Of a DNA stretch of 64,000 nucleotides, positions 5,327 through 63,734 are shown one piece after another. Origin of the DNA: Paludibacteraceae bacterium (GTDB lineage Bacteria; Bacteroidota; Bacteroidia; Bacteroidales; Paludibacteraceae); contig JAXDTJ010000018.1 in the NCBI GenBank assembly GCA_034090015.1, forward strand, positions 41,740-105,739, given 5' to 3'. A program made the position numbers and the translations under genes. The notes beneath the pieces were generated by a model, which saw nothing but the letters and a program-made list of their open reading frames with translations, was not told where the DNA came from and searched no databases. Position 1 is the stretch's first letter; every line of letters starts with the position of its first letter.

Positions 5327-7654
5327 TTATCTCACCACAAAACGCATCGTCTCTCCTTCTGCTACTACTATATACATGCCTTGCGGTAGGTTCATAGTGC
5401 TCATCTCCGTAGCGTTGCCATCGCCTATCGAAACGCCGCTCACGGTGTACAAATGCAGCAATTTGCCTTCGGGGTTGAGTATTGCCGAGCCGTTGAAGGA
5501 GATAGTGGTGGCAGTAGCGTCTTTGACAGCTGTTTCCGGTTCATCTTCCTCTTCCTCCGAGTATAGATTGATATAGAAGAGGTTATAAGAGCCTTTCTTG
5601 GTCAGTTCATGGCTGCCGGTGGCGATATCGTACATAATCACGCTGTTTGCAGCGGTTACTACCACGCCGTCCACTTTGATATTTGCGCTCGTTTCTGTAG
5701 ATGCAAAGCCGAGGTAGAGCGTCATATCTTTCGTTGTCGTGAACTTGACAGACGTAGAGGATTCTATTTTCAAACACTCTGTATAAGTAGTGCCGTTTGG
5801 AGCTGTAAACGACCCCTTGGAATTGCTATAATTTCCTGAAATGGTATAGAAACTATTGCTTGGCGTGAGACCCGTGAAATGGCACTCATACTCGCCCGTG
5901 GAAGTCCCGGGTATAACGGGGTCTGTCGGGTCTGTGGGATCAGTGGGGTCAGTCGGTTCTGTGGGCTCCGTCGGGTCGGTCGGCTCATCGCCGCCACCGG
6001 TGCCGCTGCCGGTTTCTTCGCCGCCAACAATACCTATCAGTGTGGTGGTGTAGTTATCTATCTTATTCCGCAGCGCGTCAATCACTTCGTAGTTGGTGTC
6101 CTCCGTAGCATCGTTGAACGTATATTGGAAGTCGCCGTGCTCGCAGCGTCCTGCCCCTTTGTCGCCCGTTACGATGGCGGGCACTTGGTTGGGGTCGTCG
6201 GGCGTGAGGGAGGGCATGAGCGAAGAGTTGGTGTCGAAGTTACTATACGTGTTCCCGCCGAGCAAAGATTTCACACTCGAGGGCACTTGCTCGCTGCGGC
6301 TACTCACCACGTAGGCATCAAAATGCTGATTATTCGTGCTGCTGTAGGGGATGAACTTACACGAACCTGTCATGACATTGTTGTATGCCTTGATGCTGCC
6401 TCCTGCCTCGCCGGAGAATGTCCCTTTCGTCTGGTCGCTGCTGCCTACGCCGCAGTTCACATCCGAGCCTTGCTTCGAGGTCAGCATCGGGTACTTGCAG
6501 TTGCGGAAGTAGTTACACTCCACGAATACATCGGAGCCCGTAGTGGACCCTACACCGTATTTGGCTACGCCATCGAAATAATTGTTGTAGATATGTACGC
6601 TCATCGTGCGGATACGCGGATGGCGCGAGTCGGAGTGGTCGAACCAGTTGTGGTGGTAGGTAATATAGTTCGGTCCGCTCTCGCTCGTCATACCGCACAT
6701 CGTGGACTTGCCTGTGTCCCAGAAATGGCAGTATGAGATAGTAACATGTTTCGAATCACTTTTCACATCTATCGCTCCGTCGCCTTTCTTTTGGTCGCCG
6801 CCTTTATTCGGACCGTAGAACACATCAATGTGGTGAATCCAGATATGGTCGTTGTCGGTATCCAGCGAGATACCATCGTCCAACCCCGTCATCACGCCGA
6901 GGTTGCGCAACTCTACCGAAGCGGAGTTGCGAACCAAGAAACCGAAGCCTTTGATGGTCGCATCTTTGCCCACACCCTCAATAGTGATGTTCAACTCCGA
7001 GTCGGCGGCTTTACCTTTTATCTGCAAACCTTCCGAGGAACTGCTCAGTGCATCCATGTCTCTTGCTTGAATCGTGCCGATGATGCGGAAGACGATAGGC
7101 GTCTTGTCCTGCCCTTTTTGATAGGCGTTGATGATGGCTTGCATACCCGTGCAGGTCGTCTTGGTGCCGTTAGAACCCGTAACAACATCTGTCGAAATAG
7201 TCTTCGCGGTGTTCTTCGTTACGTAGAACACTTTCGCGCCGGCTTTCAGCGTACCGTCGTTGTTGTACGCGCCCACGCCCTTTGAATAGTTGAAGTGTGC
7301 AAACCCGTTGCGGTCGTGGGCTGCTACGGTCAGCGTGCCGGTTTCTGTGGCTTCCGTTGTAACCTCATTACCGCTGTTGTCCACGGGCACAATCTTCAAT
7401 TGGTAGTTGCCCGCCTTCAGTCCGAGGGCATCTACGCGCATATACGAACCGTAGTTACGCAGCAGCATAGCGTCCAACTGCGTATAGGTGCCACCCGCAG
7501 GGCGGACATACGCATGGTAGTTAGTGTATGACCCCGGTGCCCATTCCGCATAAGCGGTCTCCAGCCATCCGGCAGACTTAGTGATTTCTACGGCAGCCTG
7601 TGAGCTTACCGTGAGGGCTGCAAAAGCAGCAAGAAAGAGTGTACGAATCTTCAT
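5327..7654 (-). CDS. secreted pectate lyase (PL1-like) with T9SS C-terminal sorting domain
   Basis: Signal peptide MKIRTLFLAAFAALTVSSQA. Beta-helix lyase motifs WIHHIDVF, GDGAIDVKSDSKHVTISYCHF and HHNWFDHSDSRHPRIR. A (PTD/PTE)n linker is present. The C-terminus ending LPQGMYIVVAEGETMRFVVR looks like a T9SS type-A CTD. Confidence 0.8.
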   Translation of the reverse strand: MKIRTLFLAAFAALTVSSQAAVEITKSAGWLETAYAEWAPGSYTNYHAYVRPAGGTYTQLDAMLLRNYGSYMRVDALGLKAGNYQLKIVPVDNSGNEVTTEATETGTLTVAAHDRNGFAHFNYSKGVGAYNNDGTLKAGAKVFYVTKNTAKTISTDVVTGSNGTKTTCTGMQAIINAYQKGQDKTPIVFRIIGTIQARDMDALSSSSEGLQIKGKAADSELNITIEGVGKDATIKGFGFLVRNSASVELRNLGVMTGLDDGISLDTDNDHIWIHHIDVFYGPNKGGDQKKGDGAIDVKSDSKHVTISYCHFWDTGKSTMCGMTSESGPNYITYHHNWFDHSDSRHPRIRTMSVHIYNNYFDGVAKYGVGSTTGSDVFVECNYFRNCKYPMLTSKQGSDVNCGVGSSDQTKGTFSGEAGGSIKAYNNVMTGSCKFIPYSSTNNQHFDAYVVSSRSEQVPSSVKSLLGGNTYSNFDTNSSLMPSLTPDDPNQVPAIVTGDKGAGRCEHGDFQYTFNDATEDTNYEVIDALRNKIDNYTTTLIGIVGGEETGSGTGGGDEPTDPTEPTEPTDPTDPTDPTDPVIPGTSTGEYECHFTGLTPSNSFYTISGNYSNSKGSFTAPNGTTYTECLKIESSTSVKFTTTKDMTLYLGFASTETSANIKVDGVVVTAANSVIMYDIATGSHELTKKGSYNLFYINLYSEEEEDEPETAVKDATATTISFNGSAILNPEGKLLHLYTVSGVSIGDGNATEMSTMNLPQGMYIVVAEGETMRFVVR

Positions 7655-17640: not shown

Positions 17641-17880
17641 GCGACTGTCAGACCGCTGTCCGACTGATTTACTGGGGACGCGGGCGGCTCGCCCGCGGGC
17701 CCGTCGGGCCCGAACAGCGGGTGTGGGCCATGTGATATCCTCCACGGCTTGCGCCTTGCCCGGGGGCGAGACGCCCGCGTCCCCAGTAAATCAGTCGTTC
17801 AGCGCAGCGGTCGGACAATGAAATGGTCCCGATAAATCGGGATGCAAGCATCTGACAGCGAAGCGGTCAGAAACATCTGT
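17641..17880. repeat. composite element: CAGACCGC-word palindrome with nested GC-rich MITE-like insert
   Basis: Perfect 25-bp inverted repeat GACTGATTTACTGGGGACGCGGGCG (17662-17686 / 17772-17796), flanked by GACCGC and GCGGTC words. Confidence 0.8.
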
Positions 17881-19535: not shown

Positions 19536-19692
19536 CGACCGCAGACGCTAAAAGACCTTCTATCGACTGCAAGACCGCGCTTTGCACTGTAAGACTGATA
19601 TACAATTAAATACTGAATAAGTCGGACAGTGCACTGTCGTTCAGCGATAGCGGTCGGATAGTGCAACGGTCGTTCAGCGATAGCGGTCGTAA
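19536..19692. repeat. ~155-bp CAGACCGC-word palindrome after lipoprotein gene
   Basis: GACCGC words on the left, GCGGTC words on the right, centre GACTGATATAC...CTGAATAAGTC. Confidence 0.8.
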
Positions 19693-19705: not shown

Positions 19706-21289
19706 ATGAACATCCACGAAGAATCCCAACGCTGCTTGTTGTGCGAGAACGCCCCTTGCAGTCAAGCGTGTGCCCACGGCGACCCTGCGCGGGCAGTGCG
19801 CGCCATCCGTTTTGATAACCTCCACGCGGCAGGGCAGTGGTTGCTGCCATGCACCGACCGCGACCTCCAAGCCGCTGAGCAGGCGTGTATCCACTACGAC
19901 CGCTCCATCCGCCTGCGCGAACTCCGCGATGCCTACAAGCAGGAATGTAAACAAAGGTTAGATAACCATCTCCCCCGCCCCGCTTCGTTTATCCCAGTTT
20001 ATCCCGACTTGTCGGGAACCAGTCGGGACGGGGAGGAGAATAGGGGGCGGGGAGAAAATACCTTGTTAGCCTCCCTCCCCTCCCTCGCCATCGACTTCTG
20101 CGGTATCCCCTGCGAGAACCCCTTCTTCCTCGCCTCGTCCGCCATCTGCACCAACTACGAGATGGTCGCCCGCGCCTTCGACGCCGGCTGGGCAGGGGTC
20201 TTCTACAAGACAATCAGCCTCCAAGACATCCGCGAGGTCTCGCCCCGCTTCGACGCCATGCACACCAACGCCGCCAAGGGCGATTTCTACACCCTGCGCA
20301 ACATGGAGCAACTCAGCGAGAACCCCGCCGAGGTGGACTTTGACATCCTCGCCCGACTCAAGCAGAACTACCCCTCGAAAGTCATCGTAGCGAGTATCAT
20401 GGGGCAGACCGAGGAGGAGTGGATTACCCTCGCGAAGATGGCGGAGAAGGCGGGAGCCGATGCCGTGGAACTCAATTTCTCTTGCCCGCAGATGCGCCTC
20501 GCGGGGATGGGTAGCGACGTGGGGCAGAACCCCGAACTGGTTACGTTCTACACCGCCTACGTCAAGCGCAACGTCTCCATCCCCGTCATACCCAAGATGA
20601 CGCCCAACATCACCCATATCACCGAACCCGCGATGGGAGCCTTCTTCGCCGGCGCAGACGCTATCTCGGCTATCAACACCATCAAGTCCGTAACCATGAG
20701 TCCCCGCGCGGAGGTCGCCGACCGCCGCACCGTCTCAGGTTTGTCTGGACGCGCCGTCAAGCCCATCGCCCTGCGCTTCATCGTCGAGATGGCGAAGAAC
20801 CCCCTGATGAAGAACATCCAGTTCAGCGGTATCGGAGGCATAGAGACGTGGCGCGACGCGCTGGAATTCATACAGTTAGGCTGCCGCAACGTGCAGGTGT
20901 GCACCGCCGTTATGCAGTACGGCTACCGTATCATCGATGACCTTACCTTAGGCTTACAATTATATATGTCCGCCCGCGGGCTCACGCGCGTGGAGCAACT
21001 CGTTGGCGAGGAACTGCCCTCGTTCGTAACCCCCACAGACCTCGACCGCGAGACGATGGTCTTCCCCAAGATTGACCGCACGCGCTGTGTCGGCTGCGGG
21101 CGTTGTTTCATCTCTTGCGCCGATGGCGGACACCAAGCCATCACCTTCGATGCCGACCGCCGCCCCCATATCGTGGGTATCAAGTGCGTGGGCTGCCACC
21201 TCTGTCGCCTCGTCTGCCCCACGGGCGCCATCGGCGCGGCGCAACGCATGCCCAAGCACCAACTCCCCCGCACCTCCGACCCCACCTAA
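19706..21289 (+). CDS. PreA/dihydropyrimidine-dehydrogenase-B-like flavoprotein (DHOD-like TIM barrel + Fe-S domains)
   Basis: N-terminal CLLCENAPCSQAC. DHOD-like blocks NPFFLASS, ELNFSCPQ and GIGGI. C-terminal CVGCGRCFISC and CVGCHLCRLVCP ferredoxin motifs. I prefer the ATG at 19706 over the track start at 19661. Confidence 0.75.
   Translation: MNIHEESQRCLLCENAPCSQACAHGDPARAVRAIRFDNLHAAGQWLLPCTDRDLQAAEQACIHYDRSIRLRELRDAYKQECKQRLDNHLPRPASFIPVYPDLSGTSRDGEENRGRGENTLLASLPSLAIDFCGIPCENPFFLASSAICTNYEMVARAFDAGWAGVFYKTISLQDIREVSPRFDAMHTNAAKGDFYTLRNMEQLSENPAEVDFDILARLKQNYPSKVIVASIMGQTEEEWITLAKMAEKAGADAVELNFSCPQMRLAGMGSDVGQNPELVTFYTAYVKRNVSIPVIPKMTPNITHITEPAMGAFFAGADAISAINTIKSVTMSPRAEVADRRTVSGLSGRAVKPIALRFIVEMAKNPLMKNIQFSGIGGIETWRDALEFIQLGCRNVQVCTAVMQYGYRIIDDLTLGLQLYMSARGLTRVEQLVGEELPSFVTPTDLDRETMVFPKIDRTRCVGCGRCFISCADGGHQAITFDADRRPHIVGIKCVGCHLCRLVCPTGAIGAAQRMPKHQLPRTSDPT
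19969..20055. repeat. palindromic element inside the PreA-like gene
   Basis: TCTCCCCCGCCCC ... GGGGGCGGGGAGA arms enclosing ATCCCGACTTGTCGGGAACCAGTCGGGAC. Confidence 0.75.
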
Positions 21290-21292
21290 TAC

Positions 21293-21340
21293 CCACTGGG
21301 GACGCCTCACTGGGGACGCCCCGACAGTGTCGCGGGCGGA
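21293..21340. repeat. ACTGGGGACGC words after the PreA-like gene stop
   Basis: CACTGGGGACGCCTCACTGGGGACGCCCCGACAGTGTCGCGGGCGG, related to 17668 and 63388. Confidence 0.7.
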
Positions 21341-21829: not shown

Positions 21830-22023
21830 GACCGCAGCAAGACCGTCTGACGACTGTCAGACCGCGCTTCGCGCTGAAAGACAAAAGATCGCTCACTTCG
21901 TTCGCTGTCAGACTGATATAGTCTCAAATGCTGAATCAGTCTTTCAGCGAAGCGGTCGTACAGTGAAACGGTCAGACAGCGAAGCGGTCGTTCAGCGAAA
22001 GCGGTCTAACAGCACAGCGGTCA
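21830..22023. repeat. ~190-bp CAGACCGC-word palindrome after second lipoprotein gene
   Basis: Same architecture and centre (GACTGATATAG...CTGAATCAGTC) as 19536-19692. Confidence 0.8.
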
Positions 22024-26200: not shown

Positions 26201-29200
26201 TTCAGCGGCAGGATACTCTACGAACGCTCCACCATACCGGTGAAGGGCGTGCATTTCTTGGTGAACGGCATACTCGCCACCGATGCCACAGGCAACCCCG
26301 TCGAGACCAACGAGAGCGGTAACTTCCAGTTTGAATTGCCCAAAGCACCGATACGGGTGCAGGCTGTGAAAGACGGACACTGCTTTGCCAACGATGGATA
26401 CCTGATTCTCAACGGAGACACCCTCTTCCAACCTACCGACAACATCGATGCCATTCGCTTCTACGACCGAACGAAGGTACGCCTCATCGGGCGTATTGCC
26501 GGCGGTAACGACCAAGGACTACTCCCCTTAGGCTTCGGACTCAGCCGTAACAACCTCGGCGACCATATCTGCATGGTGCTGGAGTTAGAGGGCGACAACG
26601 CCGCGCAGATAGTCTTCGACCCCTTGGACAAGACCCTCAACCGCCTTGACACCACTATCGTCCATGCCATAGACACCACCCAACATACCGACATTTCCTT
26701 GCAGAGCAAGCGGATAATGATTTACCCCGACCCGGCTTCCGGAGAGTTCTTTGCCGACCTCTTCCCCGTGAAGTACAAAGTAACCCAACTGACCGCACAA
26801 GGCTATAGCACGCTCACCAACGAGAAGACCGCCATGCAGGTCATAGACCTCACCAACAAACTCGACAGCCAATACACCTATTATACTGACACCATTCAAG
26901 GAGGTGCGGTCTCCAGGCCGCACCAAGAGAACTATGACGAAACCATGGTGCGGTTAGGAGACCGCACCTCCTTGGCCTTCCACGACACCTTCCGACATAT
27001 CTACCATAGCCCCATCACCGTAACGCCCGTACAGAGCCTTTACGGCATGGAGGTGGGCTATTTCGGCGTCGAGCGTATCGCTGTGCAACGATGGGACGGA
27101 GAGTCGGAATCCCAGTCGGTAGCACTTGCCAAAGAAGACGGCACCTATGAATACCTCTTCGGAAAACCCATCTTCACCGAAGGCAAATACACCTTCAATA
27201 TCTACGCGCACGAGGACTATTACTATAATGGCGACCGCAACCTCGGCAAGCACGACCGCGTGATGCTCCACGAAGGCGAGGTGAAAATCTATAACGGCAT
27301 GCACTCCAACACAGAAGTGCTGACCGGGACGCTCGATAAAGACGGTGTCTGCCGCAACATGGTCCTCCGCGCGGATTATCCCACCTACACGCGCGTGGAC
27401 GAAGACGCTGCGCGAAACATACAGGTTACTGTAACCTACGAGCGTGAATCCCATACTACCGAGCCTTTGCGGGTGCTGGTATTCGCCGACCGACGAGAGG
27501 GAACAGAGGCAATATCCTCCACCACGGCAGACATCACACTCTACGATATCCTGCGCGACCCGCCCGGCTCCGGCAGTTTCGCTACACTCAGCGCAGGAGC
27601 ATCATACTCCGCATCGAAAACATGGGCGTTATCCGTCAAAGCGGGTGTCACACTCGAGTTCGAAAAAGGAGTAAAATATGCCGGATTTGTGGGAGCGGTT
27701 ACTGCCGTCCCGGGACTGCTATCAGCGCAAAACTATAACATAAACACAACCACACCATTCAGCATTCCGCTGGTGTATAATTATTCCATCAACAAAGATT
27801 ATAGTTATTCCTATTCCACCACCGAGACCATACGAACGGGTAGTGATGCCTACCATGTAGGTGCAAAAGCGGACATATTCATGGGGGCAGTGGAGAATCT
27901 CTATATATCTACTTGCCACGGTATGGCTGTGCTGGACTCGCTGACCTATCTATCGATGGCTGCGCAGAAGGAGAACGGCACCATGCGGCATATCGCTACC
28001 GCACGAAATCTACAAGGTGAACTACGCCACCTCGTGGTAGCGCCTAAACTCACCTTAGACATGGTGCAGGATGCCACTTTCTGCTACACCCAAGAGCACA
28101 TCCTCACCACCGTGATTCCCAAACTGGTAGCCCAACGCAATGCCTTGGTGCTTTGCGTGGACTCAGCGGCGGCAAGAGCAAAAGCCAATCAAGAGAAAAA
28201 GCGTATCTACTACACTACGATGAGCCCTGATAGTGCCGACTTCGCAATAACACGCGGGAAAGGGTACGACTTTGTTGACCCCGTAAATAATACCGATAAT
28301 ACACCCGAGGCGGATAAAGTAGCCGGTATCAACCGTGCCATCCTCGCTTGGACCAACCTGATAAAACAAAACGAGAAGGAGAAGGTCAATGCACAATATA
28401 CCACCGACAAAAAAACATATTCCGTGGCAGGTGGCTCTACGCTTACCTATTCCGAAACGGTAACTTACGGCAGCAAATATAACGAAATACCCTTCAACTT
28501 GGGCGGTTCTGCCGGAGCAAGCAATCTGAGCAATCTATGGGGAAACGCCATCAACAAAACCATACAGACGCTTCTACAGGTAGGTGGAAAGGCTGATTCT
28601 ATCACCATTGAGAGCGAAGCGCCGGGCAGCAAGTTCTCCTTCAGTTTGAAACCCATTGCCAATATAAGCACCCAACCAACTTACGCCGCCTCCGAACAGA
28701 AGTCGCGCACCTATGGTTATACGCTATCCCCAGACCGGTTCGGATATATGGATGTGCAAGTAATGCGCATGAAAGACACGATAAGCGATTTCTACCAAAA
28801 CGCGGAGGATACCCTTGCGTTAACAGGAGAGAAAGCCAATGGTAAACTGCAAAGTTACAGCAGTTTCATCTTCCGCCAGTTGGCAGGTGCCAGCCGCTGC
28901 CCGTGGGAGGATGCCGACTCCACACTCTTCTACCAGCCCGGCACGCCGCTGAGCATTGCCACCGCGCGCTTGGAAAACCCGCAGATAACCATCGCCCAAC
29001 GCGAGATAAGTAATGTGCCTGCCGACCAACGCGCCATCTTCCAAATCGCCCTCAACAACGAGCAGACCTACTACACGGGCATAGGTGCAGCCACCCTGCC
29101 CTTTGAACTGTCGGTTATGCCGGGTAGCAACCCCAACGGACTCAAGATAACCATAGACGGCCAACCCCTCACCTCGGATCCTTTATCCATCACTCTCCCG

Positions 29201-32200: not shown

Positions 32201-33334
32201 GCATGGACGAACGGCGACATCATCAAGAACCCCGAAGAGCAATACTTCGCAGAATATCAGATGAATACCTCGCCAATTCGATGGTATGGTACCCTATCCA
32301 CGATACGGTACCGCAGCATTTTCTTGGCGCATGTGTCGAATCCTATTCTACTGCAGATTGAGGGCGACCGTTTGGACGATGAGGGACGCACGCTCACGCT
32401 TGAGCAGGGGTGGAACGTAATGCCCTATCTCCTGACAGAGAAGCAGTCGCTCACCGACGCCTTGGCTGACTACTACGACGATGCCTCCGAGGGCGACCTC
32501 ATCAAGAGTCGCGATGCCTTTGCTGTCTTCTCCCACGCAGGCAAGTGGGAAGGCAACCTCACATATATGCAACCCGGGCTGGGGTACATGCTCCGCCGCC
32601 TCGCACCCGACCCCTGTACCTTCACTTACTATACTTATAACCCGTTGGAACAAGGGACAGGAAGCCAGGAGTCAAGAATTAATTATGAATTAAGAATTAA
32701 GAAAAAATCGTTCGAGCGTAGCGGAGATAAGAATTATGAGGGCAACGCAAACAACGTAAACAACGCAAACAACGCAAACAACGCGCAGCCTTACACCTCT
32801 GCCACTACCATGTCGCTCATTGCCACGGTGGAATTGGAGCCGGGAGTCAAGAACCAAGAACAAAGACTAAATGGTTCCAACGATGAGATTGCAGAAACGA
32901 AGGTAATAAGTCTTTCATCCTGTGTCCTTTGTCCTTCATCCAATGAAAGCCTTACCCTCGCTGCTTATATCGGCAACAGGCTTGTGGGGGTCGGTTATCC
33001 GCAGCAGGTAGGGACAACGACAGAAGACGCTATCTTCTTCCTATCTATCGCCGATGGCGCAGAGGTGGCAAGTGGGCAGTGGCCAGTGGCCAGTGGTCAG
33101 GAGGTTAGTGGTCAGATACGCTTTGTCCTTCTCTGCAACGGCGAGCCGGTGGCACACGGCACCCAGACCTTGCCTTATCAACAAGATACGGTGGTGGGTA
33201 CCCTACGCAAACCCTATCGTATCACATTCCATACCATAGACGATATGCAAGACAAGCCGTATAAGATATTGGAAAATCAACAAATATACATTATTCGCAA
33301 TGAAAACAAATATAATATCCTTGGCGTTCATTAG
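23264..33334 (+). CDS. giant (3356 aa) secreted surface protein with FN3-like, carboxypeptidase-regulatory-like and three LamG (laminin-G_3) domains
   Basis: Signal peptide MKNRLFFLCVAMLVACGVTMA. FN3-like FLQWNPTSGSVDSFYVYRS. LamG endings IDEVRIFHRVLSQDNV, LEARLWTKALTQAEL and IDAFTLFEQALP. The frame is uninterrupted for 10 kb. Confidence 0.85.
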   Translation: MKNRLFFLCVAMLVACGVTMADNTWFEEGRNFSAYSLGQGKVHVKVLVFARGGTNNHWATTGNGGSFVYAYSSGNTVYALQYEGDNNYNCENDYKGWVKFQVKSGTVIITNSYGGNNSTTYTPSNGWVNLYLSRTGESNTPTYLEFDWYPPTVLDNRSFDLKATITDTRKYGDTWTHTWYLGSFSGLSLQAPMLYQPVFYSVGEDGQPGHGQVAIPYVVYQEPKSYTTSTTGNTTFICKERTGQLLAKTTDTVQYGFSANFTVVREDKTTTVVTSSKVDIPAFHRIYDFKAEHYVPEGMDSMWYIKTKTTLSWKVRTPWATDIMPMDMFQIQRAYHPDFSDAETLALIPYETGKGTYQWVDDTEGAMKNLRTDTIDMNIYYRVNRVSTTNWGYEGHEWVRTTAIRKNTSLTHFDSDYSNYRKADDFQETRRVLFTLETLTDLNMSYCWDERASIRVRRLAISAVDTIITERVFPGSMVRPLPPDPKRGNPYFSTLYRFDFEDVADIPCCHYEYEVYIDDSQSLLKLDDLYHRYQEPLKLTSLDLYYTDAASIATFRVSDGVYPDRIFLQWNPTSGSVDSFYVYRSTDQRQGGEEIARIAGQHYYIDTDVVPGTVYYYTLMASYLCGGTHQTQFTEQKRGSLSPYGCIRGRITYPNGTGNVGVTVRAEGISGDVASITPNYLYADSTRVVYNSTQDPVSLSGDFSIQMMVKDSDLTIVSGTGHPLLYSTDSTFRLELSGETIRFTMGNQTRLLSLRNEHSQNNDNNIFSLTLTYCAHTQTVTLYRDEQQTATATIPLHNIHSRLRFCCPYSLAPVSSYGVGIDEVRIFHRVLSQDNVRTYSRHALAGDENGLILYYKFDMLSLSDIAIPNIAKMQATDGNGMMAANNALIWDKAKNDDDYRYIHLPGDLITRFEALTDESGNYVLAGIPFANGITYSLTPTAQHGTFRYNGTSSASATITIGNTRPEATAVDFMNTDAVRFSGRILYERSTIPVKGVHFLVNGILATDATGNPVETNESGNFQFELPKAPIRVQAVKDGHCFANDGYLILNGDTLFQPTDNIDAIRFYDRTKVRLIGRIAGGNDQGLLPLGFGLSRNNLGDHICMVLELEGDNAAQIVFDPLDKTLNRLDTTIVHAIDTTQHTDISLQSKRIMIYPDPASGEFFADLFPVKYKVTQLTAQGYSTLTNEKTAMQVIDLTNKLDSQYTYYTDTIQGGAVSRPHQENYDETMVRLGDRTSLAFHDTFRHIYHSPITVTPVQSLYGMEVGYFGVERIAVQRWDGESESQSVALAKEDGTYEYLFGKPIFTEGKYTFNIYAHEDYYYNGDRNLGKHDRVMLHEGEVKIYNGMHSNTEVLTGTLDKDGVCRNMVLRADYPTYTRVDEDAARNIQVTVTYERESHTTEPLRVLVFADRREGTEAISSTTADITLYDILRDPPGSGSFATLSAGASYSASKTWALSVKAGVTLEFEKGVKYAGFVGAVTAVPGLLSAQNYNINTTTPFSIPLVYNYSINKDYSYSYSTTETIRTGSDAYHVGAKADIFMGAVENLYISTCHGMAVLDSLTYLSMAAQKENGTMRHIATARNLQGELRHLVVAPKLTLDMVQDATFCYTQEHILTTVIPKLVAQRNALVLCVDSAAARAKANQEKKRIYYTTMSPDSADFAITRGKGYDFVDPVNNTDNTPEADKVAGINRAILAWTNLIKQNEKEKVNAQYTTDKKTYSVAGGSTLTYSETVTYGSKYNEIPFNLGGSAGASNLSNLWGNAINKTIQTLLQVGGKADSITIESEAPGSKFSFSLKPIANISTQPTYAASEQKSRTYGYTLSPDRFGYMDVQVMRMKDTISDFYQNAEDTLALTGEKANGKLQSYSSFIFRQLAGASRCPWEDADSTLFYQPGTPLSIATARLENPQITIAQREISNVPADQRAIFQIALNNEQTYYTGIGAATLPFELSVMPGSNPNGLKITIDGQPLTSDPLSITLPHGTTIHKTIEVERGQGYDFEDITLLLRSTCDIMEYALAAFSVHFVPAATPVSMPTPHDQWVLNTQSARDSAGYYLPVSIDGFDIHSDGFDHIELQYKPHTASDADWVNICSYYVSDSLYEQASGTKQRIAGSKIDNIRFYGGRDPMEQEYDLRAMAFARYGNGFVTRASEVLHGVKDTRRPELFGTPTPADGILSVGDVLSLRFSEPIAGNLLDEDVNFEVIGTDDVLSLTTSLHFTGEFSCYARTKVTRNMNARPFTIEAMIKPTGNAALQTIFALDNEKEPLWFAWAGDHLEAQIGKVRLQSATVEPILDFTRVALTYNLEDSIARFFVGTQEINYELRIKNYEHSEHSDNSEHSDYSATNAKPSYHSAAQLIWGNNATYDAPFQGDMLEARLWTKALTQAELARYKDCHLTGYERELVAYYPMNEGKGTTCEDKANGATLTLNGTSWVLPEGMSIHLNGAEPICLNGDLLSRSDIEDLTLLFSFKADENLADTSELLHAGKHTMHLTSDALLWRTDSTERRAPGAFADAQWHQLVVAIDRTRNIASLLVDGNTLLATAADDIPAFADSVWTLGQSFRGHIDAFTLFEQALPTYVIERYNNLAPQGDEMGLIAYMPFGQYILQPNGRYELVYSPENARIFRDADGNTVEKHQKLVMNNLTRYTDKKDFAPLRNGNARKKLNFSWASNGDELMININMPDHEINHRNLLLTVQRVEDQHGNAMLSPHTWAAYVHRQQLRWDNPQINYEQQVPGSESQVSSAQPYTFTATIRNHGGTTREYHLNSLPSWLTAQPASGFLAPLETQTITFTVDEGLNIGEYTEYIYLTDDQQLDDRLLLNLHIKATCPWTLDQTELNRSMSLIGQVQIPVENGTIQIDTDSQDMVAAFVGEQCVALAPVRLNQQTKPVTYMTIYGNDSHAGKALRFQLWHAKNGKVYILAPSEDIPFRANECYGCEGTPITLTVTDRQVQLLTLQPGWNWFSLYLKPTYRSDLTRLFCSSDAWTNGDIIKNPEEQYFAEYQMNTSPIRWYGTLSTIRYRSIFLAHVSNPILLQIEGDRLDDEGRTLTLEQGWNVMPYLLTEKQSLTDALADYYDDASEGDLIKSRDAFAVFSHAGKWEGNLTYMQPGLGYMLRRLAPDPCTFTYYTYNPLEQGTGSQESRINYELRIKKKSFERSGDKNYEGNANNVNNANNANNAQPYTSATTMSLIATVELEPGVKNQEQRLNGSNDEIAETKVISLSSCVLCPSSNESLTLAAYIGNRLVGVGYPQQVGTTTEDAIFFLSIADGAEVASGQWPVASGQEVSGQIRFVLLCNGEPVAHGTQTLPYQQDTVVGTLRKPYRITFHTIDDMQDKPYKILENQQIYIIRNENKYNILGVH
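26897..26974. repeat. 78-nt palindromic element in-frame in giant ORF
   Basis: Arms GGAGGTGCGGTCTCCAGGCCGCACC / GGTGCGGTTAGGAGACCGCACCTCC. The left arm is identical to 62935-62959. Confidence 0.85.
30206..30280. repeat. TTAAGAATTATGA words + CACTCCGA words in-frame in giant ORF (LamG domain 2)
   Basis: ATTAATTATGAATTAAGAATTAAGAATTATGAG, then GAGCACTCCGATAACTCCGAACACTCCGATTACTC. Confidence 0.85.
32666..33115. repeat. cluster of five different word-repeat families in-frame in the giant ORF 3' region
   Basis: Five families are present: TTAAGAATT words (32675-32705); CAACGCAAA x~5 (32744-32786); AAGAACC words (32846-32865); the AAGGTAATAAGTCTTTCATCC... copy of the 58204 repeat (32897-32945); and CAGTGGC words (33070-33115). 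Confidence 0.85.
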
Positions 33335-34340: not shown

Positions 34341-35228
34341 ATGGAGAATTTTGCCGGATTAAGCGGGCGTTGGGCGGACGAAAAGACCGCGCGGATAGTG
34401 GTGTTGCCTGTGCCTTATGACAAGACGAGTTCGTGGGTACACGGTGCGGAGAAGGGACCGGAAGCCTTCTTGGAGGCGAGCGTGCAGTTGGAGTGGCTGG
34501 ACACGGAGACGCGGACGGAGGTCTATCGTCAGGGTATCCATACCGCCGCGCCCGTAACGGAAGACCGCACGCCGGCGTTGCTATGCGAGGCGGTGGAAGA
34601 ACGCATGGGGGCACTATGGGACGCGGGGAAGTTCCCCTGCATGATAGGCGGCAACCACACGGTGTCTATCGGTGCTTGCCGCGCGGCGGCGAAGCGTTTT
34701 GAGGGGCTGACGGTGCTGCAATTAGACGCACACAGCGACCTGCGACCCGAATACGAGGGGTCGGAGTTGAACCACGCCTGCATCATGAAAGAGGCGCAGA
34801 AAGTGGCGAAGACGGTGCAGGTGGGGATCCGCAGCCAGTGCGTAGAAGAGGCGGAGAACGCTGCGAAGAGCACGATTATATGGGCGCGCGAGATATGGGA
34901 AGACGAGACCTTCGGGCAGCGACCTGCCTCGGCGAGCGAGAGTTGGGCGTGGGAGAAGCGGGTATATGATGCGCTGACGGAGAATGTGTATCTGACCATC
35001 GACCTCGATGTGTTCGACCCTGCTTATCTGCCCTCTACGGGTACGCCGGAGCCCGGGGGCATGGGCTACTATCAGGTGCTGCACCTGCTGCGACCTGTGT
35101 TCGAGCGATACAACGTGGTGGGGTTTGATATCGTGGAACTCTGTCCGAGCCCGACCCGCCAAGCGCATGCGTCGCAGTACCTCGCCGCACGGCTGGCATA
35201 TCAGTTGATGACATACAAATTTATTTGA
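34341..35228 (+). CDS. speB: agmatinase (arginase/ureohydrolase family)
   Basis: GGNHTVSIG, LDAHSDL and DLDVFDP Mn-binding motifs, in a polyamine gene context. Confidence 0.85.
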   Translation: MENFAGLSGRWADEKTARIVVLPVPYDKTSSWVHGAEKGPEAFLEASVQLEWLDTETRTEVYRQGIHTAAPVTEDRTPALLCEAVEERMGALWDAGKFPCMIGGNHTVSIGACRAAAKRFEGLTVLQLDAHSDLRPEYEGSELNHACIMKEAQKVAKTVQVGIRSQCVEEAENAAKSTIIWAREIWEDETFGQRPASASESWAWEKRVYDALTENVYLTIDLDVFDPAYLPSTGTPEPGGMGYYQVLHLLRPVFERYNVVGFDIVELCPSPTRQAHASQYLAARLAYQLMTYKFI

Positions 35229-35305
35229 CAATTGGACAATTTACAATTTGACAATTATGCGCCGCATGGCTAATTGTAAAATTGTCAATTGTAAAATTGT
35301 AAAAT
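35224..35305. repeat. GACAATTT-word hairpin between speB and nspC
   Basis: Loop TGCGCCGCATGGC. The speB TGA lies inside the first word. Confidence 0.85.
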
Positions 35306-35311
35306 GATACC

Positions 35312-36553
35312 ATGTTTCCCAATCCTTGCTACATAGTGGAAGAGCGGCTTCTGCACCGTAACCTCGCGCTGATAAAGCGCGTGGCGGATGAGACGGGCGT
35401 GGAGATAATCTTGGCATTCAAGGCGTTTGCGCTTTGGAAGACTTTCCCTATCTTCCGTGAGTATATTCAGCATACCACGGCTTCGAGTGTCTATGAGGCG
35501 CGGCTGGCATACGAGCAATTCGGTGCCCCCGCGCACACCTATAGCCCCGCCTACACGGAGGAGAACTTCCCCGAGTTTCTGCGGTATTCGAGCCATATCA
35601 CGTTCAATAGTTTGAGTCAGTGGGAGAGATTTGGAAGGATCCAAGAACCAAGAACCGAGAACCAAGAGGGGAGAGTCTCTTTCGGCATACGTATTAACCC
35701 TGAGTATTCGGAGATAGAGACCTTGCTCTACAATCCTACGGCGCCCGGGTCGCGGTTTGGCGTGCTGGCGGAGCAGTTGGAGACCTATTGCGAGGCGCGT
35801 GGCGGGAGGCTGCCCGAAGGATTGGAGGGCTTTCATTGCCACTGCCATTGCGAGGATGATTCCTACACTTTCGAGCGGACGCTGCAACACATAGAGGCGA
35901 AGTTCGGCAAGTGGTTCCCGCAGTTGCAATGGCTCAACCTCGGCGGCGGGCACCTGATGACCCGCAAGGACTACGATGTGGAGCATCTGATAGGGTTGCT
36001 CAAAGGACTGCGCAGCCGCTATCCGCACCTGAAGATACTGCTTGAGCCCGGCAGCGCGTTTGCTTGGCAGACGGGTGTGCTGACGAGCAAGGTGGTGGAT
36101 ATCGTGGAGAACCACGGTATACGGACGGCAATACTGAACGTGTCGTTTGCCTGCCACATGCCCGACACGCTGGAGATGCCCTATCAACCGGCAGTGAGGG
36201 GAGCAAGACCCACCCCTCCCCTCCCTGAAGCCACCCCACTACGCGTTGCTTGTGGGGACCCCGGAAAGGGAGGGAGTGAAGACCCCCGCGAGGTAGGGAG
36301 TGAAGAGGGGTATCGGTATCGCCTTGGGGGCAATAGTTGTCTGTCGGGGGACTGGATAGGCGATTGGGTGTTTGACCACGAGTTGCAGATTGGGGAGGAG
36401 ATAATCTTTGAGGATATGATTCACTACACCACGGTGAAGACGCACATGTTCAACGGCATTGCTCATCCCTCGCTGGGAATACGCCGCGAAGACGGCACGG
36501 AGGAAGTGCTCCGCACATTTGATTACGAAGATTACTTGAATAGGATGGACTGA
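35312..36553 (+). CDS. nspC: carboxynorspermidine/carboxyspermidine decarboxylase
   Basis: N-terminus PCYIVEERLLHRNLALIK...ILAFKAF (PLP Lys), then LGG.SCLSGD and HYTTVKTHMFNG blocks. It carries two repeat-derived in-frame inserts. Confidence 0.85.
   Translation: MFPNPCYIVEERLLHRNLALIKRVADETGVEIILAFKAFALWKTFPIFREYIQHTTASSVYEARLAYEQFGAPAHTYSPAYTEENFPEFLRYSSHITFNSLSQWERFGRIQEPRTENQEGRVSFGIRINPEYSEIETLLYNPTAPGSRFGVLAEQLETYCEARGGRLPEGLEGFHCHCHCEDDSYTFERTLQHIEAKFGKWFPQLQWLNLGGGHLMTRKDYDVEHLIGLLKGLRSRYPHLKILLEPGSAFAWQTGVLTSKVVDIVENHGIRTAILNVSFACHMPDTLEMPYQPAVRGARPTPPLPEATPLRVACGDPGKGGSEDPREVGSEEGYRYRLGGNSCLSGDWIGDWVFDHELQIGEEIIFEDMIHYTTVKTHMFNGIAHPSLGIRREDGTEEVLRTFDYEDYLNRMD
35637..35671. repeat. 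AAGAACC words in-frame in nspC
   Basis: GGATCCAAGAACCAAGAACCGAGAACCAAGAGGGG. The same word occurs at 32846. Confidence 0.75.
36205..36312. repeat. GC-rich repeat block in-frame in nspC
   Basis: Contains CACCCCACTACGCGTTGCTTGTGGGGACCCCGG, which matches 38593-38630 (CACCCCACTGCGCGTTGCTTGCGGGGACCCCGC). Confidence 0.8.
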
Positions 36554-40071: not shown

Positions 40072-41028
40072 ATGGATATATCAATTATTGTTCCCTTGTA
40101 CAACGAGGCAGAGTCGCTGCCGAAACTCTATGAATGGATAGTGCGCGTGATGAAAGAGCACGGGTACACCTATGAGATACTGTTTGTGAACGATGGCAGT
40201 ACGGATGCGTCGTGGCAAGTGATAGAAGACCTCGCCAAATCAGCAGCGGAAGGCACTGTGCACGGTATCTCTTTCCGCCGCAATTACGGCAAGTCGGCTG
40301 CTCTCTACTGCGGCTTCCAAGCCGCACAAGGCGAGGTCGTCATCACGATGGATGCCGACCTGCAAGACTCGCCCGACGAGATACCCGAACTCTATCGCAT
40401 GATTACCGAGGACGGTTTCGACCTCGTGAGCGGCTGGAAACAAAAACGCTATGATAACAAACTGACCAAGAACTTGCCGAGCAAACTCTTCAACGCGACG
40501 GCTCGGCGGGTTACCGGTATTGCGCTCCACGACATGAACTGCGGGCTGAAAGCCTATCGGCAGGAGGTAGTGAAGAACATCGAGGTCTTCTCGGAGATGC
40601 ACCGCTATATCCCGTACCTCGCTAAGAATGCGGGATTCACCAAGATTGGCGAGAAAGTGGTGCAACATCGCAAGCGTGAGTTCGGGGTATCGAAGTTCGG
40701 GTTGAGCCGCTTCGTGAACGGCTACCTCGACCTACTCACGCTGTGGTTCCTCAATAAGTTCGGCAAGCAGCCCATGCACTTCTTCGGGCTAATTGGCAGC
40801 CTGATGTTCTTCATCGGACTGGTGGCGGTGATAGTGGTAGCGGGAATGAAAGTGCATGCGCTGGCAAACGGTATTCCCGCCATGCTGATAGGCGTCAATC
40901 CCTACTTCCACATCGCCATCCTGATGATGATTCTCGGCTGCATGCTCTTCCTCGCAGGTTTCTTAGGCGAACTCATCATCCGCAACTCCGGCGAACGCAA
41001 CAACTACCTGATTGGGAAAAGAATATAA
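40072..41028 (+). CDS. family 2 glycosyltransferase (polyprenyl-phosphate sugar transferase-like, two C-terminal TM helices)
   Basis: ISIIVPLYNE, VNDGSTD and TMDADLQD motifs. The C-terminus is hydrophobic. Confidence 0.85.
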   Translation: MDISIIVPLYNEAESLPKLYEWIVRVMKEHGYTYEILFVNDGSTDASWQVIEDLAKSAAEGTVHGISFRRNYGKSAALYCGFQAAQGEVVITMDADLQDSPDEIPELYRMITEDGFDLVSGWKQKRYDNKLTKNLPSKLFNATARRVTGIALHDMNCGLKAYRQEVVKNIEVFSEMHRYIPYLAKNAGFTKIGEKVVQHRKREFGVSKFGLSRFVNGYLDLLTLWFLNKFGKQPMHFFGLIGSLMFFIGLVAVIVVAGMKVHALANGIPAMLIGVNPYFHIAILMMILGCMLFLAGFLGELIIRNSGERNNYLIGKRI

Positions 41029-41128
41029 CATTTGACAATTTGACAATTTACTATTTTACAATTAACCATGCGGCGCATAGTTGTCAAATTGTAAATTGTC
41101 AAATAGTCAAATAGTAAATTGTCAAATA
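41029..41128. repeat. GACAATTT-word hairpin between GT2 and hypothetical gene (inverted copy of the 35224 family)
   Basis: The loop CCATGCGGCGCATAG is the reverse complement of the 35258 loop. Confidence 0.85.
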
Positions 41129-57655: not shown

Positions 57656-57730
57656 GACCGCTCACTGCGTTCGCTGACAGACCGCTACGCTGACAGACCG
57701 CTTTGCTGTCTGACCGCTACGCTGACAGAC
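57656..57730. repeat. GCTGACAGACCGCT words x3-4 between lipid kinase and dut
   Basis: GACCGCTCACTGCGTTCGCTGACAGACCGCTACGCTGACAGACCGCTTTGCTGTCTGACCGCTACGCTGACAGAC. Confidence 0.8.
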
Positions 57731-58195: not shown

Positions 58196-58203
58196 ATATG
58201 TTA

Positions 58204-58404
58204 GATGAAGGATAAAGGATTAAGGATAAAAGACTTATTACCTTTGTCTCTGAATATTCATAGTTGAAACTATTTCGTCTTTCATCCTGTATCCTTAATC
58301 TTTTATCCAAATAGTGTCTCTAATCCTTTATCCAAATAGAGTCCTTAATCCTTTATCCAATAAACTATTTAGTCTTTAATCCTGTGTCTTTAATCCTTCA
58401 TCCA
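58204..58404. repeat. GGATAAAGGATTAAGG-word hairpin plus tandem tail, overlapping the TPR gene start
   Basis: Left arm GATGAAGGATAAAGGATTAAGGATAAAAGAC, right arm GTCTTTCATCCTGTATCCTTAATC, then 3 more TAATCCTTTATCC units. Confidence 0.85.
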
Positions 58405-62934: not shown

Positions 62935-62959
62935 GGAGGTGCGGTCTCCAGGCCGCACC
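62935..62959. repeat. solo arm of the GGAGGTGCGGTCTCC palindromic element
   Basis: 25 of 25 nt identical to 26900-26924. Confidence 0.85.
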
Positions 62960-62983
62960 ATCGGAGAAAAGGGCGCGGACTAT

Positions 62984-63017
62984 CTCAACACTCAACTCTC
63001 AACCCTCAACTCTAAAC
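62984..63017. repeat. CTCAACT 7-mer array upstream of trmH-family gene
   Basis: CTCAACACTCAACTCTCAACCCTCAACTCTAAAC. Confidence 0.85.
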
Positions 63018-63020
63018 TAC

Positions 63021-63613
63021 ATGCAGAAACTGACCATACAAGAGATGAATCGCCTATCTGCGGAGGCCTTCCGCGAGGCGGAGAAATTGCCGCTGGTGGT
63101 GGTGCTGGATAATGTCCGCAGCCAACATAATGTAGGTGCTGTGTTCCGTACAGCCGATGCGTTCTTGTTGGAGGGCTTGTACCTCTGCGGCATCACGCCG
63201 AAGCCCGACACGCTGAGTACCAACAACGACCTGCACAAGACGGCGCTCGGCGCAGAGCTGACAGTGGCGTGGCAGGCGTTTGCAGAGACGATGGAGGCGG
63301 TGAAGACACTGCAAGCGAGAGGCTATAAGGTCTATGCTGTAGAGCAGGCGCACCACTCCATCACCCTCGAGCAGGCTGCGCAAGAAATCACTGGGGACGC
63401 GGGCGTCTCGCCCGCGGTGGGGCTGTCCCTCCCCGTCTGCACTAACGGCATCGCCATCGTTCTCGGGCATGAGGTCTTCGGTGTGGCGCAGGAAGTGGTG
63501 GATGCTTGCGACGGCTGCATAGAGATTCCGCAGTATGGCACCAAACACTCGCTGAACGTCAGCGTAACAGCAGGCATCGTCATGTATGCTCTCGCCACCG
63601 CCATGCGGGGTTC

Positions 63614-63620
<7 letters not shown>
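63021..63620 (+). CDS. TrmH/SpoU family RNA 2'-O-methyltransferase
   Basis: VVVLDNVRSQHNVGAVFRTADAF, VLGHEVFGV and IPQYGTKHSLNVSVTAGIVMY motifs. It carries a 16-codon repeat-derived insert. Confidence 0.85.
63388..63435. repeat. GC-rich MITE-arm sequence in-frame in trmH-family gene
   Basis: CTGGGGACGCGGGCGTCTCGCCC (63391-63413) is identical to the reverse complement of 17768-17790. Confidence 0.8.

Positions 63621-63734
<114 letters not shown>

Follow-up and report, generated by a model that had tools for sequence, protein, structure and literature searches.

How does a short repeat that forms the arms of an intergenic inverted repeat come to be translated inside a conserved RNA methyltransferase? 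The question is raised by a 64,000-nt stretch of Paludibacteraceae DNA (assembly GCA_034090015.1, contig JAXDTJ010000018.1, positions 41,740 to 105,739), referred to here as the window, in which a preliminary description placed an arm of a MITE (a miniature inverted-repeat transposable element), in frame, within a SpoU/TrmH-family gene. The answer given here with good confidence is that two modules resembling repetitive extragenic palindromes (REPs), a complete unit A and a unit B in truncated form, came into the gene at the DNA level and today form part of its translated product, as a tolerated passenger in a permissive loop.

An in-frame repeat cassette in a SpoU/TrmH-family gene

The open reading frame (ORF) that hosts the repeat (Table 1) matches the Pfam family PF00588 (SpoU_methylase) over residues 25-189 with 112.6 bits against a curated cut-off of 29.7 (E = 2.2e-32) and possesses motifs 1-3 of the SpoU/TrmH domain, and the segments NVGAVFRTADAF, VLGHEVFGV and IPQYGTKHSLNVSVTAGIVMY are invariant or near-invariant in the alignments. 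No NCBIfam equivalog reached its cut-off for the protein, the best being RlmB TIGR00186 with 94.5 bits against 160.15, and none of the named specificities (RlmB, TrmH, TrmJ or TrmL) is assigned by an equivalog model. Gene order around the locus is FKBP, an unknown gene, RimM, SpoU and TerB/DnaJ in eight alleles. The ratio of non-synonymous to synonymous substitution rates (dN/dS) outside the loop cassette is 0.02-0.11 against every allele, and the gene is therefore under purifying selection irrespective of the cassette it carries.

The 23-mer CTGGGGACGCGGGCGTCTCGCCC at 63391-63413 on the plus strand is an exact copy of the minus-strand arm at 17764-17786 of an inverted doublet and agrees with the plus-strand arm at 17672-17694 in 22 of 23 positions, in line with the exact and the close match first described; the match between gene and doublet arm extends to 28 nt at 96%. 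No chance match to the 23-mer arose in 100 dinucleotide-preserving shuffles. The family consensus, ACTGGGGACGCGGGCGTCTCGCCCGCGGT, is complete and without mismatch in the gene, and the exact identity with the arm exists because both match this consensus. Translation across the repeat gives ITGDAGVSPAVGLSLPVCT, immediately 5' of NGIAIVLGHEVFGV, which confirms the reported in-frame position and places the cassette directly before the motif-2 beta-strand.

The borders of the cassette in the eight alleles are a conserved ...CAAGAAATC on the left (...GAAATC) and AACGGCATCGCC... on the right. In the window and in one other allele, L181, the cassette consists of unit A followed by GGGGCTGTCC-CT-CCCCGTCTGC-ACT, in which the unit B remnant retains GCTGTCC and CCCCGTCTGC while GGGTrCGCAGGCGT is reduced to CT. 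The complete counterpart is an A-B dimer that recurs in the related loci L042, L077, L044 and L038. Unit A of the cassette ends in GCGGT at its 3' end, as do solo copies and A-B dimers, whereas doublet arms end in GCGGG or GCGGA, and it is followed by unit B sequence rather than by the doublet spacer; it is therefore not derived from the doublet type at 17.6 kb. The cassette contains no second inverted arm, and hence no terminal inverted repeats of the MITE kind, and neither a terminator-like site nor a promoter was found at it. On the left, the cassette is joined by AAGAAATCA, a sequence that L085 and L029 have in identical form as the spacer from unit C to unit A.

An AlphaFold2 model based on a 20-sequence alignment of close homologues had a mean confidence score (pLDDT) of 41.7 and was discarded; in its place, the loop was positioned by sequence and profile alignment to TrmH structures. 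A 175-position profile, made from orthologues that lack the insert, aligns collinearly with 1V2X and 1ZJR through the loop, which comprises 32 residues in the window protein (query 108-141) as against 13 in 1V2X (chain 100-114).

Table 1. Repeat features of the window and the gene that hosts the cassette
Feature	Position	Strand	Basis or remark
SpoU/TrmH-family RNA 2'-O-methyltransferase gene, insertion host	63021..63620	+	ORF of 199 aa, Pfam PF00588
In-frame repeat cassette, 54 nt, 18 codons, residues 124-141 TGDAGVSPAVGLSLPVCT	63390..63443	+	Eight-allele DNA alignment
Unit A, perfect consensus copy, 29-nt REP-like module	63390..63418	+	Repeat alignment, fold
Spacer and unit B remnant, 12-nt internal deletion relative to A-B dimers	63419..63443	+	Read from sequences
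Inverted doublet of unit A, REPIN-like, intergenic	17654..17804; arms 17671-17699 (+) and 17759-17787 (-)	.	Inverted-repeat search, fold
Unit A2 ACTGGGGACGCCCCGACnnnGTCGCGGGCGGT, sister subfamily that shares the 5' tail but differs in its hairpin	21309..21340	+	Also in related metagenome-assembled genomes
Unit C GGAGGTGCGGTCTCCAGGCCGCACCAT, RimM-SpoU spacer, presence strain-variable	62935..62961	+	
CTCAACN heptamer array upstream of SpoU	62983..63018	+	Period 7, 5.1 copies
CTCTCAA heptamer array downstream of SpoU	63646..63733	+	Period 7, 12.6 copies
Inverted pair of unit C	26900..26971	.	Inverted-repeat search

Repeat content of the loop in alleles and orthologues

Eighty orthologous loci of other Paludibacteraceae (57-68% identity, among the protein-pattern matches listed) were translated. 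Their modal length is 175 aa, the cassette segment is absent from them, and the sole length-variable place lies between EQAHxSxTLE and xxAxVxGHEVFGV, where 0 to ~48 extra residues are found. The proposal that the segment is an insertion is borne out by this absence. Conservation of the segment in orthologues from repeat-less genomes, named in the preliminary description as the outcome that would tell against an insertion, was not seen, and the closest reference genome in a DNA-pattern search, CAMFEN01 (L183), possesses a heptamer-coded loop and carries unit A elsewhere.

The 120 closest homologues (83-100% identity) are near-invariant proteins except in the loop. Heptamer-coded repeats of the type (A/S/V)(Q/L)(L/P)STLN occupy it in 99 of them, unit A with a unit B remnant (A+B', ITGDAGVSPA...) in seven, reversed unit C (MKKEMVRPGDRTSLKK) in five, reversed unit B (IIISRRGRLRTRTFA) in two and unit C plus heptamers, as a 35-residue insert, in one; six were not parsed. 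The same holds for the eight alleles aligned as DNA, in which flanks that are 84-98% identical enclose entirely different cassettes, each composed of the same genome's own repeat modules. The cassette of L180 is unit B reversed, that of L179 is unit C reversed, and that of L175 is unit C, a spacer and heptamers, while L174, L177, L182 and L183 have CTCAACN heptamer arrays in the loop, with length differences of 21 nt (three units). By its flanks, the window allele is nearest to L175 (93.8% and 97.5%), whose cassette differs. L181, which has the same cassette as the window, is 85.9% identical in the left flank and 96.3% in the right, a mosaic pattern, and its unit A copy has decayed by four substitutions, so that the insertion predates the split between the two. 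Seven diverged A+B' alleles come from independent samples in ENA and Logan assemblies, and their reading frame is intact.

Repeats next to the gene vary as well. The window, L174, L177 and L183 have a module of unit C, spacer and CTCAAC array upstream of SpoU; L175, L180, L181 and L182 lack it there, and L175 has the module in the loop instead. The RimM-SpoU spacer of L175 and L180-L182 (positions 1425-1503 region; 62935-63018 in the window) measures 13 nt only. In other genera, the loop array matches the genome's own intergenic heptamer type, for example CACAATK in L139, ACTCTAM in L114 and ACTTTAA in L108. The best reading of these patterns is that the SpoU loop is a permissive and recurrent landing site for repeats.

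Several loci outside the closest group illustrate the distribution of such arrays. The heptamer loop of L139 lies at 3319-3408 and an intergenic array of the same CACAATK type at 4709-4744; L114 has its loop at 3322-3369 and ACTCTAM arrays at 3977-4007, 4398-4427 and 5690-5714; L108 has its loop at 3322-3369 and an ACTTTAA array at 4671-4702; and L095 has its loop at 3322-3444 and arrays of the same TCCCGAAsCAC type at 688-710 and 4848-4879. Each of these Paludibacteraceae genomes has its own heptamer type, common to the SpoU loop and non-coding DNA. A separate feature is seen at the other end of the protein, where P0031, P0094, P0095, P0117 and P0119 bear 15-28 extra annotated N-terminal residues (MTSPTLN..LSTLNF, MEVRSP...). 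These extensions are the translated, stop-free upstream heptamer array and unit C, and the start codons have therefore probably been miscalled.

Unit A is a free-standing REP-like module

Unit A is a free-standing REP-like module. The conserved core across 122 aligned copies is the 29-nt consensus, with unrelated flanks, and folds into an 8-bp stem of G+C pairs that closes a loop of 3 nt and is flanked by tails of 8 nt on the 5' side and 2 nt on the 3' side (-12.2 kcal/mol, z = -4.1). A scan of one genome per species gave at least 93 stretches with the exact 23-mer, nearly all in eight metagenome-assembled genomes (MAGs) of Paludibacteraceae/Bacteroidales, for which the copy number is at least 120, and at least 137 copies with up to four mismatches are present in the listed loci and the window, the lower bounds per genome being 1 to 34. 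Among the matches listed, the unit is solo in 104 of ~120 places, with eight inverted pairs and eight direct tandems; seven of the eight inverted pairs, including that of the window (17672/17764), have a fixed spacing of 91-92 nt. Direct repeats indicative of target-site duplication are absent from the flanks of the 122 aligned copies.

Modules of the same build often adjoin unit A, namely unit B (TGTCCGGGTGCGCAGGCGTCCCCGCCTGCT) and unit C (ATGGAGGTGCGGTCTCCAGGCCGCACCAT) as well as short-period arrays. A tail-plus-hairpin architecture is common to A, A2, B and C, and all four are stop-free in six frames. Together with the short-period arrays, they form a clade-specific set that behaves like selfish DNA.

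With its 29 nt and many dispersed copies, unit A has the dimensions of a REP, an imperfect palindrome of 20-40 nt. It lacks the GTAG tag. A GACG on the plus strand (CGTC on the minus strand) overlaps with the base of the stem, but in the composition of the stem, the loop of 3 nt and the tails the unit departs from what PMC3733652 describes for families CGTC-1 to CGTC-4. Rfam returned no family at gathering score anywhere in the window. No ORF for a REP-associated tyrosine transposase (RAYT; Y1 HUH) was noticed in the one place inspected, no systematic RAYT search having been made, and no transposase was found with unit A, although no search directed at insertion sequences (ISs) was made. A phage origin was considered and rejected, as the unit A 27-mer has no match in viral contigs. 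The idea of a DNA-uptake sequence was likewise rejected because the copies are net insertions (+30 nt in UvrA) and not point-mutational motifs.

Single copies of the exact 23-mer also occur in L034 (6818), L048 (7504), L066 (2735), L090 (590) and L091 (286), labelled as Caldilineaceae, Gammaproteobacteria, Myxococcales, Binatia and Myxococcota MAGs, respectively. All lack the GCGGT 3' end. The copies in L066 and L091 have AT-rich flanks and probably lie on mis-binned contigs, and two of the five stand in complete chromosomes.

Unit A is translated in many other genes

Long ORFs reading through unit A copies were sought, and 30 were tested against Pfam. Whereas REPs are predominantly extragenic, unit A stands in-frame, with Pfam domains around it or on both sides, in at least 25 other genes of related genomes, and at least a quarter of the copies examined are intragenic. 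The hosts include an RlmL-like THUMP methyltransferase, Ddl, 3-dehydroquinate synthase, IF-2, MreC, DnaE, Fe-ADH, a subtilase, an MmeI-type enzyme, a TMEM260-like protein, AcrB, a RecF-like ATPase, a carboxylesterase, an acyltransferase, a GH3 glycosidase, MetH, Dxs (two copies) and a MiaB-like enzyme; further carriers are an amidohydrolase and a TPR protein. Valyl-tRNA synthetase (ValRS) has, at one site, unit A in sense orientation in one species and antisense beside an array in another; UvrA carries the unit at two sites; whole doublets lie in-frame in PriA (L021), just before the Walker A region, and in MmeI (L050); and in glycogen synthase A-C units recur every 72 nt in one species, while another has one unit.

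Of the six frames, just three occur, encoding TGDAGVSPA (8 genes), AGETPASPV (~14) and GRDARVPS (6), and none of the three Arg-richest (LGTRASRPR, WGRGRLARG and PRARRPRPQ) occurs in any verified gene, a bias attributed to avoidance of Arg-rich peptides. In UvrA, a filled and an empty site can be compared directly: L086 is exactly 30 nt longer than L073, and the pair shows no target duplication.

For three genes, the in-frame repeats can be given in more detail. In glycogen synthase, L028 (3097-3263) has the 72-nt (24-codon) A-C repeat and L075 (~3960-4200) one copy with other G+C-rich modules, the former being an in-gene array growing by frame-preserving steps. In an Acyl_transf_3 gene compared between L039 (5792), L072 (6168-6259) and L082 (3690-3719), a long array of 8/9-nt period stands in one species, unit A replaces part of it in a second, and neither is present in a third, the same pattern as in the SpoU loop. 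An LD-carboxypeptidase-like ORF with an IGFSDITALH motif (L037 1290-2462; also L025, L036, L063, L076, L083 and L092) has two in-frame islands, one of a GGATAAAGGAC-type array plus unit A and one of a variant unit A; the first recurs in several species, possibly at two loci per genome. The RTQDKRLNSTGDAGVSPAVEKHYTE contexts of unit A had been regarded as intergenic, a view given up as one of them lies inside this ORF.

Origin of the SpoU cassette

For the route by which the two REP-like modules entered the loop, the following is given an even chance. At first the loop would have contained an array of CTCAACN heptamers, a state that most alleles retain; one of the recurrent A-B dimers would have been copied into it from another repeat cluster through recombination or template switching at short homologies; and the 12-nt deletion in unit B would have come afterwards. 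Exchange between repeat clusters is favoured over cut-and-paste into naive DNA because loop arrays match each genome's intergenic heptamer type, because the unit C module is found either upstream of SpoU or in the loop, and because the AAGAAATCA junction is shared with the C-A spacers. The cassette persists because its length is a multiple of three, unit A is stop-free, and the frame codes for small flexible residues (TGDAGVSPA). The insert-bearing enzyme most likely still works, and the insert would be carried along as a passenger, neutral or almost so, that affects the enzyme little.

The main alternative to recombination for the mobilisation step is enzyme-driven transposition of the REP type, in which a RAYT-like protein (IS200/IS605 Y1 HUH) would move single-stranded unit A straight into the loop DNA. 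This is a possibility of lower rank, though a serious one. Y1 transposases are expected to leave no target duplication, and none is seen here; the tail-plus-hairpin build common to A, A2, B and C, the solo, tandem and inverted-doublet copies, which recall the arrangements of REPs, bacterial interspersed mosaic elements (BIMEs) and REP doublets that form hairpins (REPINs), and the net gain of 30 nt in the UvrA pair all agree with it. Intragenic REPs are documented in other phyla, yet CGTC-type REPs have no associated transposase (PMC3733652). Unit A has no GTAG tag, and no RAYT gene was seen, though none was systematically sought. Moreover, the unit is often flanked by other modules and appears at SpoU, ValRS and the acyltransferase gene as a replacement and not as a simple insertion, a pattern for which recombination between repeat clusters would account no less well. 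A classic MITE event, as the preliminary description implied, would require a 135-nt inverted-repeat element of the 17654-17804 type to have transposed via its terminal inverted repeats and later lost one arm. The 23-mer does equal a doublet arm, and the doublets in PriA and MmeI demonstrate that whole elements can stand in-frame inside genes, but the great majority of the places listed hold solo units with an intact consensus, the SpoU copy has the GCGGT end and unit B in place of the doublet-arm end and spacer, and target-site duplication is absent at doublets and solo copies alike. No related IS turned up either, in work that included no IS-directed search. The name of MITE arm is accordingly not retained, and such an event is considered very unlikely.

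It is very unlikely that the cassettes represent selected functional variation, whether by altering the substrate or partner of the enzyme, by regulating expression through the hairpin, or by phase variation through heptamer slippage. Repeat occupation of the same loop across many genera, heptamer alleles that differ by three units (21 nt) and a three-frame bias that shows selection on the encoded peptide would suit such a role; however, the bias is explained by avoidance of Arg-rich peptides, and the cassettes are generic genome repeats that occur in either orientation and also in at least 25 unrelated proteins. Cassette sequence drifts fast while the remaining protein is near-invariant, and neither a terminator-like site at the cassette nor an Rfam family was found. 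The chance that the segment is native sequence resembling the repeat by coincidence, or a mis-assembly at a repeat, is close to negligible: its G+C-rich, low-complexity look is all that speaks for this, as against the expectation of zero chance matches, the absence of the segment from orthologues, and seven diverged alleles with the same cassette and an intact frame in independent ENA and Logan assemblies.

Several points weigh against the preferred account of REP-like modules copied into a permissive loop. Since the copies were gathered by an exact 23-mer, part of their uniformity is built in by the search and the copy numbers are minimum values; the comparison genomes are almost all MAGs or metagenome contigs. 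Candidate ORFs for the frame count were chosen partly by eye, and UvrA provides the one clean filled/empty pair, an intergenic pair being untidy. The surface position of the loop is derived from length variation and collinearity with TrmH sequences. Mobility is read from distribution, no excision or insertion event, transposase or target-site duplication having been seen, and the recombination or template-switch route draws on one 9-nt junction identity and the placement of unit C, which are suggestive rather than proof.

A broader proposal, put forward tentatively, is that the hairpin modules and species-specific heptamer arrays occupy fixed islands in essential genes and between genes, and that these islands swap content with intergenic repeat clusters. 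This would happen within species, through a repeat conversion by recombination or template switching without transposase or target duplication, and would be undescribed dynamics. If true, it explains that one codon position has different modules (A, A2, B or C; 29-32 nt) in sister strains and that the heptamer type of the SpoU loop is particular to each genus.

Other repeats of the window

The doublet (Table 1) lies between an AraC-type regulator gene and a gene for an SDF (sodium:dicarboxylate) symporter. Its extended arms (17654-17700 and 17758-17804) are 47 nt long, 91% complementary and 57 nt apart, and 17660-17800 folds as single-stranded DNA with -64.1 kcal/mol (z = -10.4). The arrangement with 91-92-nt spacing recurs in six MAG loci. 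The TA...TA flanks of the window doublet were considered as a target-site duplication and rejected, since they are not reproduced at other doublets.

Unit A2 adjoins the stop codon (21287-21289) of a PreA-like gene (DHO_dh + 4Fe-4S), where the preliminary description had reported a third related copy of the repeat. This is correct for the 5' 11-mer ACTGGGGACGC, which occurs there twice, at 21295-21305 as a duplicated tail and at 21309-21319, whereas the remainder belongs to the sister subfamily A2. The 10-mer CTGGGGACGC is present five times in the window, where 0.16 occurrences would be expected.

Two long inverted repeat pairs were also observed, at 35222-35320 / 41015-41113 (99 nt, 86% complementarity, 5.7 kb apart) and at 32844-32943 / 58201-58300 (100 nt, 76% complementarity, 25 kb apart); both are made of short-period arrays and could support inversions. 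Arrays of 16-nt period (CGGTCrkACAGCGAAg) at 17787-17874, 19651-19688, 21932-22006 and 57670-57730 border the unit A doublet and are met again, in both orientations, in several of the window's intergenic stretches.

Significance and comparison with known systems

The repeats affect core replication, repair and translation genes in this Bacteroidales clade. Because of them, conserved marker proteins are polymorphic in length; where stop-free repeats lie upstream of a gene, gene callers are led to wrong start codons; and the repeats are likely break or chimera points in metagenome assembly. Because many strains are represented in public metagenomes, filled, empty and swapped alleles can be compared directly, which makes the movement of REP-like modules and the tolerance of proteins for them testable. 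The literature searched contained nothing specific on REP, RAYT or palindromic repeats in Paludibacteraceae.

Small dispersed repeats of ~21-27 nt in cyanobacteria, close in size to unit A and the subject of work by Elhai et al. in 2008, reportedly insert into each other and into genes. In the literature examined, an association with heptamer arrays that are species-specific is not described for MITEs or cyanobacterial repeats. Bacterial MITEs with in-frame fusions include the QMITEs of Coxiella (PMC5896051) and ERIC and BOX (review PMC10969869), which resemble the present repeats as small non-autonomous elements within ORFs that add peptide segments; unlike them, the SpoU copy has neither terminal inverted repeats nor a target duplication and is not known to have a parent IS. 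In REPIN systems, it is the doublet that replicates, and singlets represent remnants in decay (Bertels and Rainey 2011, PMC3116915). The window doublet is REPIN-like in being inverted, having a fixed spacer and folding into a long hairpin, but the doublet is not the predominant form: unit A singlets are the majority (104 of ~120 places listed) with perfect consensus, and many copies are genic.

The GTAG and CGTC super-families of REPs are another parallel. Their intragenic members are often found in replication and repair genes, including uvrA (Di Nocera et al. 2013, PMC3733652), and the hosts of unit A likewise include UvrA, PriA, DnaE and a RecF-like ATPase. Both consist of 20-40-nt stem-loops with short unpaired tails that occur as singles, dimers and clusters, a minority of them inside ORFs and coding for 10-30 or more residues. 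CGTC repeats are reported in Bacteroidetes, without an associated transposase, and in their families the stem measures 8-9 bp and begins with A-T pairs, the loop has 4-5 nt and the tail is CCA (PMC3733652), in contrast to the 8-bp G+C-only stem and 3-nt loop of unit A. A further difference is the high intragenic share of unit A.

Rickettsia palindromic elements (RPEs; Ogata et al. 2000) are in-frame palindromic repeats in functional genes, as outlined in PMC10969869 and PMC3733652. As far as these accounts go, the likeness extends to in-frame occurrence in many unrelated, apparently functional housekeeping genes, to translation into a conserved peptide at fold-tolerant places and to the lack of a known transposase. 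Unit A shares the in-frame insertion into functional ORFs, with dN/dS of 0.02-0.11 for SpoU. At 29 nt, it is shorter than RPEs, which measure ~100-150 nt in the same accounts, a range that the unit A doublet (~135 nt) reaches, and no Rfam family matched in the window; on length and Rfam scan the two are set apart, and no sequence relation is claimed. The host here is a free-living gut/rumen Bacteroidales clade and not an obligate intracellular alphaproteobacterium, and one site bears different modules in sister strains. Unit A thus belongs to an already-known phenomenon, that of REP/RPE-like intragenic repeats, which is unusually clear here in that one codon position holds different modules in sister strains and heptamer arrays are common to protein loops and intergenic DNA. 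Selfish DNA inside protein genes, best known from Rickettsia, is thereby extended to abundant uncultured gut/rumen Bacteroidales.

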